Sequence record: NC_049853.1
Length of the DNA stretch: 49,890 nucleotides
Strand: one strand, 5' to 3'
DNA from: Escherichia phage Henu8
Under the pieces are notes generated by a model that did no database searches, was not told the origin of the DNA, and worked only from the letters and a program-made list of their open reading frames with translations. Positions 1,415 to 19,099 of this stretch are shown here, one piece after another. The translations under genes and the position numbers were made by a program. Within the stretch, counting starts at the first letter, position 1; each line of letters begins with the position of its first letter.

Positions 1415-1646
1415 GTTTAACCGCCTTCAAAACATCACATGATTCGTTAATAAATTTTGCCATGCGCTTATCATCACCAACAGGGATTAGCGCGTTAAAC
1501 TCGCGCTTGCTACTGAATACCGTCACTTTATGGAATGATGCGAACGGCATCGACGGGAACTCGACTGTTTGCGTCAAGATCCGCAATCCCATCTTTTTGG
1601 CCCTTACCTGGGCCTCGGCAAGTTCAAAATCCACTTCACTAATCAT
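1407..1646 (-). CDS. hypothetical protein (79 aa)
   Basis: ORF track; 4-nt overlap with upstream gene 1643..1915. Confidence 0.6.
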   Translation of the reverse strand: MISEVDFELAEAQVRAKKMGLRILTQTVEFPSMPFASFHKVTVFSSKREFNALIPVGDDKRMAKFINESCDVLKAVKHG

Positions 1647-1915
1647 TTCTTGATCTCCTCAGCAATAAACTTCAATACCTGGCGCAAGAAAACTTCGTTG
1701 TTGATAGTCGCTGGCAATTCTTCTTTCACTTCTTGCGGCAGGTAAACGTTGCCATGCCAGGTCAAGCAATCGTAGTTGATGCGATAAGAGCAAAGCCACT
1801 CGCAATCGTTATCCGCTTCCCAAATGCAGAGTTGCAGAACATCACCGAAATCCTCAACAGTCAGATCCAGACCGTGACGCTTTGCGAAGTTGAAAGTGGT
1901 TTTGCTGATGTTCAT
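1643..1915 (-). CDS. hypothetical protein (90 aa; Cys/Trp-rich)
   Basis: ORF 1643..1954 trimmed to ATG at 1915 (GGGGA SD 5 nt upstream); promoter motif immediately upstream. Confidence 0.5.
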   Translation of the reverse strand: MNISKTTFNFAKRHGLDLTVEDFGDVLQLCIWEADNDCEWLCSYRINYDCLTWHGNVYLPQEVKEELPATINNEVFLRQVLKFIAEEIKK

Positions 1916-1952
1916 TGCTGTCCCCTGAATGGTATCTCGTTTCGATGTGTGC

Positions 1953-1998
1953 ATTATGCCGAATCCAGTCAGGCACGTTTTAACAAAAAGTGCTATTT
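1953..1998 (-). promoter_or_regulatory. conserved phage promoter motif + -10 (CATAAT)
   Basis: Minus-strand AAATAGCACTTTTTGTTAAAAC at 1977-1998, 18-nt spacer, CATAAT (revcomp of 1953-1958). Confidence 0.5.
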
Positions 1999-2247
1999 CT
2001 CAACTGGCGATTATTCAAACTATTCCATTAATCAGGAATAACAGGAATAACTCATTCGCGATCACCTGGATTGTGAGACTTTGAGTTTGGTCAATTTTAA
2101 TCAGTTGATTAACTTTTTGTGTGGAGGGGATAGAGAAACGCGGCCCTCTTGCGTCCTTTCCGGCAATCCTGGCGCGCGCATCTGTTATTTCTGTTCCCTG
2201 CGTTATCGCAATCAAGCCTCCGCACTTTTAGATAACAGAATCGGCGT

Positions 2248-2470
2248 TCATCAACAAAAAGAACAAAATAAAATTTATATATATACCCATAAAATCAATA
2301 AGTTAGTTATATATGTATTTATATTTGTTATTTACTGTTGAGCTTGTTCTATGGGTATATGGTGGAGTGGTATTGTTTGTGGTGATATGTATGTGTGATT
2401 GTATATTTTTTAATCAATTGTGATGTGTGGTGATTTTTGTATGTATATATATAGGTATGGGGCAATCCTC
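2248..2470. repeat. TA/TG-rich element, copy A (homologous to 31921-32150)
   Basis: Shared blocks CAAAAAG.AACAA.AATA, ATATATATAC, AAATCAATAAGTTAG, GGTGATTTTT; many GTGAT/TGTGA units; sits in a ~590-bp region without a convincing ORF. Confidence 0.55.
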
Positions 2471-2585
2471 CGTCAACCAAGTCAACAAGGTCATTTTTAA
2501 CAGAAAAACCAATTACTTAACTGAAGCATTTTGTTATCTTTAAACGCGCCACATTCCAAAAATTGTTATTAAAACACAAAATATA

Positions 2586-2614
2586 TTGACATGTATGAAA
2601 GGCAAGGCAATAAT
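2586..2614 (+). promoter_or_regulatory. sigma70-like promoter (TTGACA-17-AATAAT)
   Basis: TTGACA at 2586-2591, 17-nt spacer, AATAAT at 2609-2614, upstream of first plus-strand gene. Confidence 0.5.
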
Positions 2615-2650
2615 GCATCCAGTTTAAACGCAACAAAAGGAGTAGACGCC

Positions 2651-3121
2651 ATGAGCGAAGAAAATATTAGCACCATGTCGCGTAGTGAGTTCTGCGATAT
2701 GCTTCGCAGCCTTGGCGCGGCAATTGGTAGCGGCGAGCGTAACAATGTATTCATGCCAGCACTTTTCTTGTGCGCTAACGTGGAGAACGGCGACGCAATT
2801 ACAGCATCGTACATGCGCCAGGTTGTCAACCGTGTGCCAGAAGTAAAGCAAAAAGGCGTGATCAGCATTAAGCGAAAGGTGACTGATGAGGGTGATGGCT
2901 TTGTGTTTACGCTCACTGAAGCCAAAAGCAAGCCTCGCGTGCTGACTGGAGACGATATAGCGAAACTTGAAATCAAGTGGCGAGCAAAGTTTATTGCTCA
3001 ACTTCTGAAAACTCAGCCGAGAATCAGCGATCTTGAAGGCGAGCGCCTGGAGGGTGCGGCAATCGCACTTGAGCGAATGAATGAAATGCTTAACGAGATG
3101 GTAAAGATGGGGGATGAATAA
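2651..3121 (+). CDS. hypothetical early protein (156 aa)
   Basis: ORF 2591..3121 trimmed to ATG 2651 with AAGGAG SD; the 2591 ATG lies inside the promoter -35. Confidence 0.6.
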   Translation: MSEENISTMSRSEFCDMLRSLGAAIGSGERNNVFMPALFLCANVENGDAITASYMRQVVNRVPEVKQKGVISIKRKVTDEGDGFVFTLTEAKSKPRVLTGDDIAKLEIKWRAKFIAQLLKTQPRISDLEGERLEGAAIALERMNEMLNEMVKMGDE

Positions 3122-14362: not shown

Positions 14363-15126
14363 TGAAAGTGAAGGGCGTCGTTAAACAATGGCGCTTTCCT
14401 GAAGCAAGCGAGCGGCAATTTAGCCGCTCAATTCAGGAGGCAATTAGAGATCTTGTGGTTCTCATGCGCAAGCGAACAAAAGCGATGAAGTTTGACGCAA
14501 CAGATAATGAGATCAACAGCGCAGAAGATGAAATTAACAGCCTGGCAACTGACCTTATAGCTGGCATTATTTCAACTCTTCCGGCAATCGCGTTGACCAT
14601 CTATAAATTCAATGCGAAGCAGTTTATCAATGTTGCCAAGTCAACTGGCGGAAAGGATAATACGGCGGTAATTGTTTTGATCGCGGTTGGCGCTAACGCT
14701 AACGAGGATTGGTATCAGACGCTCTACGGTCAATGGCACGGGCTTACAGAATCATCGCTAAGGAAGTTATTCACAAACATTGTTTCTGATTGGTCAACAA
14801 ACATTCGCAATGCAAACTTTCGCGGAAGCAATGATAAACAGGTTAATGATCTTGCAGAAAAGAGATTTGCTGTTTATAGCTCTTGGGGCAAAACAAGATC
14901 AGAAAACATTATCGGCGCGTGGAATAGTCGCCTGATGCGCCAGCGCCTTTATGATGCTAAGGTGACTCATTATTTCTGGCATGGAATGTTAGATGATAGA
15001 GAGCGCTTGCAGCATGTGTTATGGGAAGGTAAAAGAATAGCGCTTGATGCAATTCATGATTTCCCTGGTGAGCCGTGGGGTTGCCGTTGCTGGGCGATTC
15101 CAGATTGGAATAATAAAGGAGAGTAA
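14362..15126 (+). CDS. head morphogenesis / minor capsid protein
   Basis: 254 aa; start overlaps portal stop; position portal to scaffold. Confidence 0.45.
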   Translation: MKVKGVVKQWRFPEASERQFSRSIQEAIRDLVVLMRKRTKAMKFDATDNEINSAEDEINSLATDLIAGIISTLPAIALTIYKFNAKQFINVAKSTGGKDNTAVIVLIAVGANANEDWYQTLYGQWHGLTESSLRKLFTNIVSDWSTNIRNANFRGSNDKQVNDLAEKRFAVYSSWGKTRSENIIGAWNSRLMRQRLYDAKVTHYFWHGMLDDRERLQHVLWEGKRIALDAIHDFPGEPWGCRCWAIPDWNNKGE

Positions 15127-15130
15127 ATTA

Positions 15131-16243
15131 ATGAAGGCAAAACAAAGATTTGATAGCGTCCAGGTTAAGGCGCATTTTGATGATAATGGCTTTTTAGTGG
15201 ATCGCCCAATTGTGGCGCGAATTGGCTTGCAGGAGTACCGCACACCGTATGGAATCAGACGAGAGTTCCGTCCAGCGTCCGAGGTGTTCAAGGCTGATTC
15301 CCTTGCTACGTTCGCAGGCAAGCCGATCACTATCGGTCACGTCACAGTGACGCCAGATAATGCGGATCAGGTTGTTGTTGGTTCATGCGCTGGTGCTGGT
15401 GTTCCAAATGGTGTTGGCGTTGAAGTTCCGTTAAGCATTTACTCAAAGCGAGCAATTGAGAGCGCAAAAAAGAAAGACACGGCGGAAATTTCAGTTGGTT
15501 ACACATCGGTTGATATTGACAAGCCAGGCTGGGGTAATAATAAAACCGGTGATTACTTGTTTGAGGAAGATCTAAAGGAAGACTGGGAGCCTGATTCTCC
15601 TGATTGGGTTAAATTTGACGCCATTCAGACGAATATCCGTGTTAATCACATTGCACTTGTCTTTCGCGGTCGTGCTGGCATTGCCAAATTAAATCTTGAT
15701 AGTGAACAGGATTTTCCGTATAGTGACGAGGTTCTAAATGACAAAGGAGATGAGGAAATGACAGTAAAAATTAAACTTGATGGCGCGGTAGAATTTGATG
15801 TTCCAAAGGCCGTTGCTGATCATATTGAGGCGTTAAAGGCAGATGCAAAAGCTGCAACCGAAAAAGCTGATGGCCTTGAGGCCGAGCGCGACGCCCTGAA
15901 AACTAAAGTCGATGGCATTCCGGCGCAGATTGCAGAAGCTGTTAAGAAGGCAAAGACTGACGCAGAAGAACACGCCAAGCTGGTTGCAGATGCAACTGAA
16001 ATTGGCATCAAGTGTGACGGCTTGGACGCTAAAGCGATCAAGGTTGCTTACGTCAAAGAAGTCACTGGCGCTGATATTTCAGAAAAAGCCGATGCATATA
16101 TTGAAACAGCTTTTGACCTTGCGAAGCAGTCTGATAAAATGGCGGCGCAGCGTAAATCTGTTAAGGGCGATTCTTTCGAATCTGGCAAGGGTGAAAAAAC
16201 CGACTCCCTTGATCCGACTGCGCGTTTGAAAAAACTTAAATAA
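15131..16243 (+). CDS. capsid scaffolding protein (possibly protease-scaffold)
   Basis: Trimmed to ATG 15131 (AAAGGAGAG SD); C-terminal Ala/Lys/Glu-rich coiled-coil-like region typical of scaffolds. Confidence 0.5.
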   Translation: MKAKQRFDSVQVKAHFDDNGFLVDRPIVARIGLQEYRTPYGIRREFRPASEVFKADSLATFAGKPITIGHVTVTPDNADQVVVGSCAGAGVPNGVGVEVPLSIYSKRAIESAKKKDTAEISVGYTSVDIDKPGWGNNKTGDYLFEEDLKEDWEPDSPDWVKFDAIQTNIRVNHIALVFRGRAGIAKLNLDSEQDFPYSDEVLNDKGDEEMTVKIKLDGAVEFDVPKAVADHIEALKADAKAATEKADGLEAERDALKTKVDGIPAQIAEAVKKAKTDAEEHAKLVADATEIGIKCDGLDAKAIKVAYVKEVTGADISEKADAYIETAFDLAKQSDKMAAQRKSVKGDSFESGKGEKTDSLDPTARLKKLK

Positions 16244-16255
16244 GGAGAAATAAAC

Positions 16256-16768
16256 ATGGCTACAATTGGAGCAAGTTATTTTGCTGTAATGTCTCGTGCG
16301 TTACCTGGTCAGGTTTCTGACACTTCAGCTTATAATATTGATGGCGCTTGTGTTCTTGAGAATGCGGCAGGCAATCAGAATCAGTCTGTTTTTGTTGGTG
16401 TGGCGGTCCAGCATGGCGGCGTTGATGCGATGGGTAATAAACTGATCAAGCCTATGGCGGCAAGCGGCAAGGCTTACGGCGTTGCAATTCGATCTCACTT
16501 TCAGACAACTTCGGCTGAAGGTCGAATGATTTATGAATCTGGCGGCGGAATCAACGTAATGACTGAAGGGCGTGTTTGGATGTTGGCTAAAGACGCATCC
16601 GCGCCAGCGTTCGGCACTACAATCAAGCTGTCTGATGATGGTCAGGTTGATACAGGGTCTGGCACTATCGAAACAAACTGGATCGCAACTGGTGACTTTA
16701 CCGAGTTTCAAGGCTTGAAGCTGGTAGAGGTTCAGGTGCAAAAAGTTCCGGCAGTTTCAGCAGGTTAA
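16256..16768 (+). CDS. head structural protein (candidate decoration protein), paralogue 1
   Basis: 170 aa; AAGGAGA SD; shares GVAV...G.VWML...AP.FG...DG motifs with the next gene. Confidence 0.5.
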   Translation: MATIGASYFAVMSRALPGQVSDTSAYNIDGACVLENAAGNQNQSVFVGVAVQHGGVDAMGNKLIKPMAASGKAYGVAIRSHFQTTSAEGRMIYESGGGINVMTEGRVWMLAKDASAPAFGTTIKLSDDGQVDTGSGTIETNWIATGDFTEFQGLKLVEVQVQKVPAVSAG

Positions 16769-16775
16769 TAAATAT

Positions 16776-16800
16776 GGCGCTCACTGAGCGCCTTTTTTAT
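16776..16800 (+). terminator. rho-independent terminator
   Basis: GGCGCTC-ACT-GAGCGCC hairpin followed by TTTTTTAT. Confidence 0.55.
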
Positions 16801-16813
16801 ATTTGGGGTTATC

Positions 16814-17248
16814 ATGAGTGATTATTCAGTCATTGTTGGCGCTGAGTCGCCAGGGTGCATGGTCGATTCTTCAATAATGGTGATTAACGGATCTTTCGTG
16901 TGCGGAGATGAATTTATTGCGCCAGGTAAGATTGTGCGACTATCACATATAACAAATGGATACAAAATAGCAAGTGTTAATGGTGATCTCGTTATTGGCG
17001 TGGCAGTAAGACCGCCGGACTCGTGCATATATGAGGAGGGTGATCCAGTTAATGTGGTTAGTAGAGGTAGTGTGTGGTGCTTAACTTCTGAGAGCGAAGC
17101 GCCAGAATATGGAGATAAAGTATTTGTAACGCAAGATGGAGATGCGGCATACAGTGAAGGCGACTTGCTGAATGGTTGGATCTTTACTGGCGAACATGTA
17201 AAGGTTGATCGTGATTCATATATTGTCGGGGTAAGCATTAGCGCATAA
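16814..17248 (+). CDS. head structural protein, paralogue 2
   Basis: 144 aa; compare GVAVRPPD...GSVWCLTSESEAPEYGDKVFVTQDGD with GVAVQHGG...GRVWMLAKDASAPAFGTTIKLSDDGQ in 16256..16768. Confidence 0.5.
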   Translation: MSDYSVIVGAESPGCMVDSSIMVINGSFVCGDEFIAPGKIVRLSHITNGYKIASVNGDLVIGVAVRPPDSCIYEEGDPVNVVSRGSVWCLTSESEAPEYGDKVFVTQDGDAAYSEGDLLNGWIFTGEHVKVDRDSYIVGVSISA

Positions 17249-17331
17249 CACAAAATTATGTTGCACGTTTAACAAAAAATGCTATCATTGGGGCGTTACA
17301 TACTAACAGCCTTTATATATGGAGGAAGAAA

Positions 17332-18306
17332 ATGGAAAAAGAAAAATTTGATCAGCTAGATGCGGATATTGTTTCTAGCCATCTGGCTACTCGCGGCGTT
17401 AAGGGTGATGCTTCTGATATGGGTATCTGGACGGCGCAAGAGCTTCACAAGATCCGCTCAACTGCTTACGAGAAAGAGTATCCGGCTGGTTCAGCGCTTC
17501 GTGTGTTCCCTGTAACTAATGAGCTTTCTGATACTGATAAGACTTTTGAATATCAGATGTTTGACAGGGTTGGTTACGCAAAAATTATCGCTGATTACAC
17601 CGACGATCTGCCAACTGTTGACGCTTTAATGTCAAGCGAGTTTGGCAAGGTGTTCCGCCTGGGTAATGCGTTCTTGATCTCCATTGACGAAATCAAGGCT
17701 GGTCAGCGCACTGGTAAGAGCCTTTCCACTCGCAAGGCAAACGCAGCGCAAAACGCTCATGATCAGGAAGTTAACCGCCTGGTGTTTAAGGGTTCAAAGC
17801 CGCATAAGATTCTTTCGGTGTTTGAACACCCTAACCTGACAAAGATCGTGTCAACTGGATGGTTGAGCAACGATGAGAACACCAAGTTCCCCGAGACGGC
17901 TTCGGACGATCTTGAAAAGGCGATCGAAACCATCGAGAAGATCACCAATGGTCAGCACCGCGCAACCAATATCCTGATCCCGCCGTCTATGCGCAAGGTT
18001 CTTTCCGTTCGAATGGAAAACACCACTGAAAGTTATCTGGAATACTTCCAGAAACAAAACAGCGGAATCACCATTGACTCAATCGCAGAGCTTGAGGATA
18101 TTGATGGCACAGGAACTAAAGGTTGCCTGGTATATGAGAAAGACCCGATGAACATGTCGATCGAAATTCCAGAAGCATTTAACATGCTTCCGGCGCAACC
18201 AAAAGATCTGCATTTCAAAGTTCCGTGCACTTCAAAATGTACTGGCCTGACGATTTACCGTCCGTTTACGCTAGTGCTTATTACTGGCTTGAAAAAATCA
18301 GGTTAA
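17332..18306 (+). CDS. major capsid protein
   Basis: 324 aa; strong SD TGGAGGAAG; own promoter region and terminators on both sides; position and size fit an HK97-fold MCP. Confidence 0.65.
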   Translation: MEKEKFDQLDADIVSSHLATRGVKGDASDMGIWTAQELHKIRSTAYEKEYPAGSALRVFPVTNELSDTDKTFEYQMFDRVGYAKIIADYTDDLPTVDALMSSEFGKVFRLGNAFLISIDEIKAGQRTGKSLSTRKANAAQNAHDQEVNRLVFKGSKPHKILSVFEHPNLTKIVSTGWLSNDENTKFPETASDDLEKAIETIEKITNGQHRATNILIPPSMRKVLSVRMENTTESYLEYFQKQNSGITIDSIAELEDIDGTGTKGCLVYEKDPMNMSIEIPEAFNMLPAQPKDLHFKVPCTSKCTGLTIYRPFTLVLITGLKKSG

Positions 18307-18318
18307 TCGTATAACATT

Positions 18319-18350
18319 GGGGAATCCTTAACTGGATTCCCTTTTTTATT
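18319..18350 (+). terminator. rho-independent terminator after capsid gene
   Basis: GGGGAATCC-TTAACT-GGATTCCC hairpin followed by TTTTTTATT. Confidence 0.65.
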
Positions 18351-18362
18351 GGAGGTTATGAA

Positions 18363-18635
18363 ATGGCTAAAGAAAAAACTGTAACGCTAAAGGTTTCCGG
18401 CGTGTGCCTTATCATTGTTGATGGGGAGCATTATCATCCAGGCAAAGAGTTTGACGTAGAAGAATCAAAATTGAAAACAAGCGCGTTTGAATATCTAATT
18501 GCAAAAGGCGATCTGGAGGTTAAAGACAACTCAGCATTGAACGAAGAAATCAAACAGAGCGCAGCAAGCAAACGTAAAAAAGACCCACGAGAGGGCAAGA
18601 GCAAAGCCGAACTTGAAGACGGCGGCATCTATTAA
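18363..18635 (+). CDS. hypothetical structural-module protein (90 aa)
   Basis: ORF track; GGAGG SD; Lys/Glu-rich C-terminus. Confidence 0.5.
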
Positions 18636-18682
18636 TAAAGAGGGCGCTTATAGCGCCCTTTGTCATATCTGGAGGAAACAAA

Positions 18683-19099
18683 ATGGTTGATGAATTTTTC
18701 ACTGACGCAGAAATCACGCAGCAAATCGTAAAATTAGCGCCACCGATGAAGCAGATTGATCCAGATTTAATGGTGGCATGGATTGAGCTTGCAAAGGAGT
18801 TTGTTTGCAAGAAGCGGTTTAAAGAGTCATATCCTAAAGCGGTTGCCCTTTATACTTTGCACCTTATGACGCTTGACGGAGCTATGAAGCAAGAAGGGGA
18901 AAGCGTAGAGAGTTACTCGCGGCGCGTGGCGTCATTTTCCCTGACTGGTGAATTTAGCCAGACATTTGATCGCGTGTCCGGCGATTCAAGCGGAAAAGAG
19001 ATTAGACAAACTCCGTGGGGCAAAATGTATGAGACGTTAAATAGAAAAAAAGGCGGTGGATTTGGCCTTGTTACTGGATTTCGGAGGCGCTGCAAATGA
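18683..19099 (+). CDS. head-tail connector / adaptor protein
   Basis: 138 aa; GGAGGAAAC SD; position between capsid and tail genes. Confidence 0.45.

Follow-up and report, generated by a model that had tools for sequence, protein, structure and literature searches.

We examined two adjacent open reading frames within the head module of Escherichia phage Henu8, using the whole 49,890-nucleotide stretch of sequence record NC_049853.1 (hereafter, the window). The two genes, designated A and B, are listed in Table 1 with their neighbours, a terminator-like hairpin and a promoter-like element; both reading frames exist exactly, in position and length, as the original prediction had given them.

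Table 1. Positions within the window of genes A and B, the flanking head genes and the putative transcription signals.
Feature	Position	Strand	Basis
Prohead protease gene, upstream of gene A	15131..16243	+	Pfam DUF2213, phrog_530
Gene A, cement ORF, 170 aa	16256..16768	+	ORF list; PF22758, PDB match
Intrinsic-terminator-like hairpin and T-run between A and B	16776..16800	+	terminator scan, folding
Gene B, cement paralog ORF, 144 aa	16814..17248	+	ORF list; PF23982, PF22758
Sigma-70-like promoter element before the MCP gene	17261..17288	+	read from sequence, conserved in relatives
Major capsid protein (MCP) gene, HK97 fold	17332..18306	+	PF09950, phrog_264

The head module is ordered portal, Mu-F-like protein, protease, A, B and MCP, with the cement genes adjoining the MCP gene. 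The pair had been placed between scaffold and major capsid genes. The capsid end of this placement is right, as the gene directly after B matched PF09950 (E = 1.8e-54) and phrog_264 (E = 6.6e-101); the scaffold end is not, as the gene upstream of A encodes a protease (DUF2213 in Pfam, E = 3e-27; phrog_530, “head maturation protease”, E = 1e-112) whose C-terminal half is coiled-coil and scaffold-like. The protease reading frame likely starts at ATG 15131, rather than at TTG 15044, because the protein is annotated with 370 aa in the relatives KarlJaspers and phiE31-2.

The DNA from 15000 to 18700 was 96–97% identical to that of many coliphages assigned to Drexlerviridae/Tempevirinae/Hanrivervirus (Fulano1, grams, KarlJaspers [= Bas06; 96.5%] and pSf-1), and by its sequence the phage of the window is identified as a Hanrivervirus-like member of the Drexlerviridae, i.e., a T1-like coliphage. 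The records of relatives name A variously as “capsid decoration protein”, “putative zonula occludens toxin” or “major capsid protein”, and B is mostly labelled “hypothetical protein” in Hanrivervirus and related records. Scans of the whole window for Rfam families and tRNAs gave no match.

Paralogy and assignment of A and B

A and B are paralogs. BLASTP aligned the C-terminal halves of the two proteins (76 residues, 32% identity, E = 2e-12); both proteins passed the gathering thresholds (27 bits) for PF22758 (Phage_cement) and PF23982 (XM1_gp53_minor_capsid), and both matched phrog_1989. A scored better on PF22758 (90.5 bits, E = 1.5e-25, against 66.8 bits on PF23982), and B on PF23982 (91.5 bits, E = 6.4e-26, against 55.8 bits, E = 7.3e-15, on PF22758). 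A profile built from homologs and compared with the six-frame translation of the window found these two copies and no third; NCBIfam had no model for either protein. The proposal of a duplicated decoration or cement protein is upheld: both proteins belong to the two cement families, and both are predicted with high confidence to fold like the cement proteins solved for T1 and FCWL1. Two of the four ordered motifs offered in the original prediction as common to the pair did not survive alignment: the GVAV of B (62–65) pairs with GVAI in A (75–78), the GVAV of A (48–51) pairs with GKIV in B, and DG.VD is found in A only (DGQVD, 128–132), the corresponding residues of B being DGDAA. One might take the loss of these motifs to mean that the genes are unrelated and their similarity one of chance or composition; the probability of this is negligible, as it is refuted by the BLASTP, Pfam and PHROG matches and disagrees with the common predicted fold.

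In comparisons with PDB sequences, A matched over its residues 1–162 the 158-aa “cement protein II / decoration protein” of T1 (9KZJ) and FCWL1 (9KMG, 9KMH) at E = 2.6e-45, and the 255-aa “BIG2 domain-containing protein / decoration protein gp29” of the same entries at about 1e-17. A and T1 gp49 share the same Pfam families and are about 52–54% identical (54% in the full-length alignment) with the N-terminal arm kept, MATIGASYFAVMSRALPG in A and MAQINASYQRDMAIALPG in gp49; A differs from gp49 in having a 6-residue insertion and a longer C-terminus. The AF2 model of A, made from a 28-sequence alignment (pLDDT 88.9), found 9kmg_b as its best Foldseek match (TMq 0.80, rmsd 1.5 Å, 52% identity), and fitted the gp49-type chains (TMq 0.80–0.81) better than the gp48-type chains (0.72). 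Gene A occupies the first slot after the protease gene, as gp49 does in T1, and is preceded by a strong Shine-Dalgarno sequence, AAGGAG, at 16243–16248. A is accordingly orthologous to T1 gp49, which is the major cement (decoration) protein.

B was about equally distant in sequence from the two T1 proteins (E = 6e-11 for gp49 and 5e-9 for gp48 in the PDB comparison). Its AF2 model, from the 28-sequence alignment, was compact and of high confidence (pLDDT 91.9). The structure predictions give A and B the same cement fold; across both models, TMq to the T1 and FCWL1 chains ranged from 0.72 to 0.81. The best TM and rmsd values for B were obtained with gp48-type chains (9kzj_H and 9kmh_ak, TMq 0.80, rmsd 2.4–2.5 Å) versus 0.76–0.77 and 3.4–3.6 Å with gp49-type chains; the best Foldseek E-value was to a gp49-type chain. 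B shares with the 255-aa gp48 the fold of the N-domain and a short N-terminus, which is 4 residues shorter, whereas A shares the longer arm of gp49; B is also shortened by a deletion within the loop that follows the GVA(I/V)R strand. It holds the second slot, behind the terminator and before the MCP gene, which is the position of gp48 in T1. What B lacks is the C-terminal Big2 (Ig-like) domain of gp48, of about 100 residues: no Big_2 match was found in B at E<=1 in Pfam, the protein ends at the cement domain, and the 83-nt spacer between B and the MCP gene leaves no room for a Big2 remnant.

The neighbor-joining (NJ) tree grouped all A proteins together and gave a Tempevirinae B clade with bootstrap values of 76–91%. 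This clade was not joined to the gp48 of Tunavirus, and the deep nodes had bootstrap values of 7–17%; the tree thus gave no support for or against monophyly of all second-slot paralogs. With deep nodes below 20%, the orthology of B and gp48 is argued from synteny, N-terminal architecture, the structural fit and a link through P0023, a 239-aa protein 50% identical to B whose Big_2 tail aligns with that of gp48, which ties the B lineage to gp48. From these results B is the minor cement paralog, the positional and structural counterpart of the gp48 N-domain without the Big2 tail.

Among Hanrivervirus-type sequences, dN/dS was 0.12–0.34 for B, versus 0.07–0.26 for A and 0.04–0.08 for the MCP, values that indicate purifying selection on B. 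We rejected the possibility that B is a truncated pseudogene of a Big2-bearing gene: its reading frame is unbroken and conserved, its dN/dS lies far below 1, and the spacer after it has a normal length. B has a weak Shine-Dalgarno sequence (GGGG), where some relatives have a strong ribosome binding site, and its GC3 of 0.35 is the lowest among the head genes.

Predicted transcription signals on either side of gene B

The terminator hairpin that had been noted between the two genes is real. The sequence GGCGCTC-ACT-GAGCGCC (16776–16792), followed by TTTTTTAT, forms a 7-bp stem with six G-C pairs and a 3-nt loop; it folds at -13.3 kcal/mol (z = -3.4), and only one of 200 shuffled sequences folded as well. 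By the criterion of a hairpin plus U-tract, the full 16776–16800 segment is a predicted rho-independent terminator, and the T1 record annotates its counterpart as one. A hairpin with a T-run was present at the same place in T1, SH6, phi2457T, PeterMerian, TLS, Klebsiella phage K50 and Cronobacter phage SG01, with stems that differ. This conservation of place with different stems, in all six cement-pair genera, argues for functional conservation of the hairpin. Many terminators lie between late genes in T1-like genomes as a whole, and having one is therefore no peculiarity of the A/B pair. The end of the terminator is 13 nt from the ATG of B, a gap with no room for a promoter, so that B would be transcribed only by read-through.

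The promoter-like element ahead of the MCP gene reads TTGCAC-N16-TGCTATCAT, with (TGC)TATCAT as its -10-like block. The same block was seen, with small variations, in T1 (TTGACG..TATTAT), TLS, PeterMerian and K50. A consensus promoter scan did not flag the element at 17261–17288, as its -35 hexamer matches at only 3 of 6 positions, and promoter-like matches in the region were no commoner than in shuffled sequences; we regard the element as a candidate promoter for the MCP gene. A second hairpin, which is strong in the spacer between B and the MCP gene of other genera, was not stable in the window (z = 0.16).

Proposed cement roles and dosage by comparison with known capsids

In a T=7 shell each hexon borders six sites: two next to a penton, three quasi-three-fold sites among hexons only and a single strict three-fold site. 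The T=7 head of T1, determined by cryo-EM in 2025, has 415 copies of the MCP gp47 and is cemented by 80 gp49 homotrimers and 60 heterotrimers, each of one gp48 and two gp49 (PMC11945409), which by arithmetic amounts to 360 gp49 and 60 gp48 per capsid. The gp49 protein and the N-domain of gp48 (residues 2–153) have a common beta-tulip fold; the N-terminus of gp49 is embedded in the inner capsid surface, where it touches two MCP A-domains, and gp48 is on the outer surface only, with its C-terminal domain protruding flexibly (PMC11945409). According to the legend of Figure 2A in that paper, the six trimers around a hexon are four homotrimers and two heterotrimers (PMC11945409). From two heterotrimers per hexon, 60 per capsid and the T=7 geometry, we infer that the heterotrimers are the class of trimer next to the pentons; the portal-vertex entry of FCWL1 (9KMH), with five chains of the gp48 homolog, is consistent with a vertex-adjacent position. 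The suggestion of two different capsid-surface proteins, or of sub-functionalisation, agrees with these homotrimers and 1:2 heterotrimers seen in T1 (PMC11945409).

The gene order of T1 is the same as that of the window, i.e., protease (ST50), ST49, terminator, ST48 and MCP (ST47), and the pair in FCWL1 (9KMG, 9KMH; “decoration protein” and “decoration protein gp29”) is near-identical to that of T1. The A/B pair represents, in a different genus of the family, the gp49/gp48 system of T1 and is, in this sense, of an already known kind; its sole departure from the T1 pair is a minor paralog without Big2, a state common to TLS and others. In T1 and FCWL1 the cement is seen on the capsid; in this phage the presence of A and B in the virion is expected from their homology with the T1 proteins.

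We consider it likely that A and B, derived from one ancestral cement gene, make up the capsid cement of a T1-like siphophage, with A supplying the bulk of it and B serving as the rare subunit of A2B trimers, its dosage set by read-through. By homology with gp49, A would be the abundant subunit, forming trimers at the three-fold and quasi-three-fold sites of a T=7 HK97-fold shell, and its N-terminal arm would thread to the inner surface and clamp neighbouring capsomers. B, by homology with the gp48 N-domain, would replace one A in each of about 60 trimers, probably the five around every vertex, to give A2B heterotrimers, and would lie on the outer surface only. The MCP would be the partner to which A and B bind. 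Without a Big2 or Ig-like tail B would display no adhesion domain, and its role would be architectural, not adhesive. Control may be exerted at the level of the transcript, with read-through of the terminator limiting the dose of B and the downstream MCP gene served by its own promoter-like element; the layout gene, terminator, gene, promoter is in keeping with a requirement for large amounts of A and MCP and a small amount of B. Found across the family, this layout is a candidate for a simple means by which capsid stoichiometry is set.

B could instead occupy one class of site (the 20 strict three-fold axes, or the vertex-adjacent sites) as a B3 homotrimer. In favour of this, B has diverged far from A (32% identity over half of its length) and has no Big2 tail, a part that might limit packing in T1. 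We think this unlikely, as 1:2 heterotrimers are seen in T1 and FCWL1, the only relatives with solved structures, the portal-vertex entry holds five minor-paralog chains, and a terminator with no promoter after it predicts less B than A. It is more improbable still that B is not a virion component at all and acts in assembly only, or is the decaying relic of a gene that lost its Big2 display domain. The annotation of B as hypothetical in most records, the lowest GC3 of the head genes and the weak ribosome binding site would be in keeping with that, and in the TLS paper only one decoration-protein band was assigned by SDS-PAGE, that of Gp34, the A ortholog, although TLS also has a short B. A 15-kDa protein present in 60 copies would, however, be easily missed on a Coomassie-stained gel, and the reading frame of B is intact across the Hanrivervirus relatives with dN/dS of the low values given above, orthologs of its length are retained, and its compact, high-confidence model superposes on capsid-bound gp48. 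The A2B arrangement with a rare B is accordingly the reading that we prefer.

Outside the T1-like phages, the closest counterparts of A and B are Pam3 gp6 (8HDT), E217 gp24 (8FRS) and XM1 gp53 (7KMX), the founders of PF22758/PF23982, which belong to the same families and have the same fold. The models of A and B matched these proteins with a Foldseek probability of 1.00 and E of about 1e-5; the Pam3, E217 and XM1 proteins are trimeric and capsid-stabilising according to their PDB entries. They differ in being only 15–20% identical to A and B and in coming from myophages. The further Foldseek matches of A and B comprised, along with Pam3, XM1 and E217, the cement proteins of BB1 and HFTV1, the base of the phi29 head fibre and TW1.

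The beta-tulip proteins gpD of lambda and gp56 of TW1 resemble the A/B family as trimeric cement of T=7 shells with the HK97 fold, on which they occupy three-fold and quasi-three-fold positions, and their fold is considered analogous by the T1 authors (PMC11945409). Both bind the outer surface only, whereas the N-arm of gp49 reaches the inner surface (PMC11945409). Each is encoded by a single gene and forms homotrimers only; TW1 (5wk1_K) was a weak Foldseek match of A and B, and no sequence similarity of gpD or gp56 to A or B was found. In the herpesvirus triplex, a 1:2 heterotrimer of related subunits (one Tri1 and two Tri2) cements the three-fold sites of an HK97-fold capsid. The triplex differs from the A/B system in belonging to a eukaryotic virus, in having much larger proteins and in being indispensable to assembly, not an addition to a shell already formed; it is cited as a fold analogue in the T1 paper (PMC11945409). 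The Ig-like display by T4 Hoc and T5 pb10 resembles the Big2-bearing second paralog of T1, Warwickvirus and Webervirus, for which the T1 authors suggest that the protruding Big2/Ig-like domain may aid adsorption (PMC11945409). Such a display function cannot apply to B, which is without any Ig-like domain.

Distribution of the pair among Drexlerviridae

A tblastn search with B found 581 places in 371 phage records, with both paralogs matched in many of these records. A word-indexed homolog search with B reached close relatives only, and the distant ones were reached by an exhaustive search of representatives, whose matches fell into two length classes of about 140–170 aa and 240–280 aa. All six sampled genera with a cement pair have the order cement I, hairpin plus T-run, cement II and MCP gene. 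The lengths of A and B, respectively, are 170 and 144 aa in Hanrivervirus (the window and KarlJaspers), 159 and 146 aa in Tlsvirus (TLS), 163 and 171 aa in Kyungwonvirus (SG01), 158 and 255 aa in Tunavirus (T1, SH6 and phi2457T), 169 and 260 aa in Warwickvirus (PeterMerian), and 158 and 268 aa in Klebsiella phage K50, which we assigned to Webervirus. The Big_2 domain was detected in 5 of the 28 aligned members, and orthologs of B with 143–146 aa showed 38–54% identity. Short and long forms were interleaved within the Tempevirinae B clade of the NJ tree, and the Big2 tail has thus been lost or exchanged more than once.

Our literature searches for virion proteomics or structures of Hanrivervirus or Drexlerviridae found none on the A and B proteins, and none were found for structural or proteomic work on a minor paralog without Big2. 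Most of the practical value of the assignment lies in annotation, as A can now be called the major cement protein, and B the minor cement paralog. The short B also shows that the second paralog can keep its cement core independently of the display domain. A wider reading, which we put forward tentatively and hold with less than even confidence, starts from a B that has lost its display tail but stays under purifying selection, always behind a terminator: it is that the second paralog of the Drexlerviridae is mainly a geometric adaptor, dedicated to the five trimers around each vertex, where A would fit poorly, that Big2 is an optional addition repeatedly gained and lost, and that an A:B ratio of about 6:1 is reached through read-through. 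Relatives tolerate a fusion of about 100 residues at the position of the B C-terminus, which would therefore offer phage engineers a natural site for low-copy display, with about 60 positions per capsid.

The second slot may also hold a different type of protein. In Rogue1 (Rogunavirus) it is occupied by a 481-aa collagen-repeat protein, which was detected in virions by mass spectrometry (PMC3496638); with a collagen-like protein at this place, the second slot appears to behave as a variable “decoration” position.

Content of the position between cement gene A and the capsid gene

In Rogue1 (Rogunavirus), gene 21 (1565-3010 of locus L010) encodes a 481-aa collagen-triple-helix-repeat protein that replaces the cement paralog, gene B, between cement gene A and the major capsid protein (MCP) gene. 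Since this collagen-repeat protein was found in Rogue1 virions by mass spectrometry (PMC3496638), the second slot seems to be a decoration position with interchangeable content. The phage tonn (locus L012), classified as a Warwickvirus, has the short Hanrivervirus-type B, 94% identical to that of the window, and its gene A product and MCP are similar as well; whereas, Warwickvirus PeterMerian (L004) has a 260-aa B with a Big2 domain and an identity of only 44%. The comparison of tonn with PeterMerian suggests that the head module is mosaic, or that the taxonomy is mismatched.

In pSf-1 (locus L013, 1530-1919) the B frame does not open until about residue 14, and its annotated start is the internal Met16, giving 129 aa. 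In phiE31-2 (locus L002, 3359-3748) the B ORF is full-length, yet it was annotated in the short form of pSf-1. The short B of pSf-1 could represent a sequencing error, or it could be real and arise from a genuine alternative start at Met16. Another B homolog, P0001 from Shigella phage 2019SD1 (176 aa), carries an internal duplication of its C-terminal half; its source record is flagged UNVERIFIED_ASMBLY, and the duplication is probably an assembly artefact.

Signals flanking the MCP gene, and probable MCP processing

The features located on either side of the MCP gene are collected in the table.

Features flanking the MCP gene in the window
Feature	Coordinates	Location	Details
Sigma-70-like promoter element	17261-17288	just 5' of MCP gene	TTGCAC-N16-(TGC)TATCAT
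Strong hairpin + T-run	18319-18342	directly 3' of MCP gene	z=-2.55
Conserved 90-aa gene	18363-18635	between two terminators, right after MCP	DUF7444, phrog_2716
Strong hairpin + T-run	18641-18659	3' of 90-aa DUF7444 gene	

The promoter-like element includes a TG resembling an extended -10, and it is also present in the B-MCP spacers of T1 (L003), PeterMerian, K50 (L006) and a further relative's locus, L005, being kept across Drexlerviridae genera. A consensus promoter scan did not flag the element in the window, because its -35 hexamer there has 3/6 matches. In PeterMerian, T1 and K50 a strong hairpin with a T-run lies directly 3' of the element, an example from these other genera being GGCTGTTA-CTTG-TTAACAGCC TTTTTT. 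The hairpin at 17292-17320 of the window is degenerate, with a stability no greater than that of shuffles (z=0.16). The spacer hairpin of the other genera could be the gene B terminator, placed 3' of the MCP promoter, or it could be a stem-loop within the 5'-UTR.

The two hairpins downstream of the MCP gene have counterparts in T1, where terminators are annotated behind ST47 and ST46; terminators break up the late head operon behind the genes of abundant proteins. The DUF7444 gene is the positional counterpart of T1 ST46, whose protein is absent from those modelled in the T1 virion.

Residues 27-33 of the window MCP (N-terminus encoded within 17332-17430) read ASDMGIW, identical to the determined N-terminal sequence of the mature TLS capsid protein, and residue 27 is also the first residue modelled in T1 gp47. 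From these sequence correspondences, a 26-residue propeptide is probably cut off the MCP by the prohead protease.

Annotation and host labels in public records

We compared annotations among public records matching window 15000-18700. Among the names given to gene A were "putative zonula occludens toxin" and "major capsid protein", the latter label also being given to the 90-aa DUF7444 gene, and B of phiE31-2 was labelled "BIG2 domain-containing protein" although it is without a Big2 domain. Public annotations of these head genes are inconsistent or wrong. The head region of 19 "Campylobacter phage" records (MG065657 and 18 others) matched that of the window, with B proteins 78-95% identical. 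These records probably carry wrong host labels, or represent contaminants; MG065657, the one record of the 19 that was examined, is marked UNVERIFIED and is placed in Hanrivervirus.
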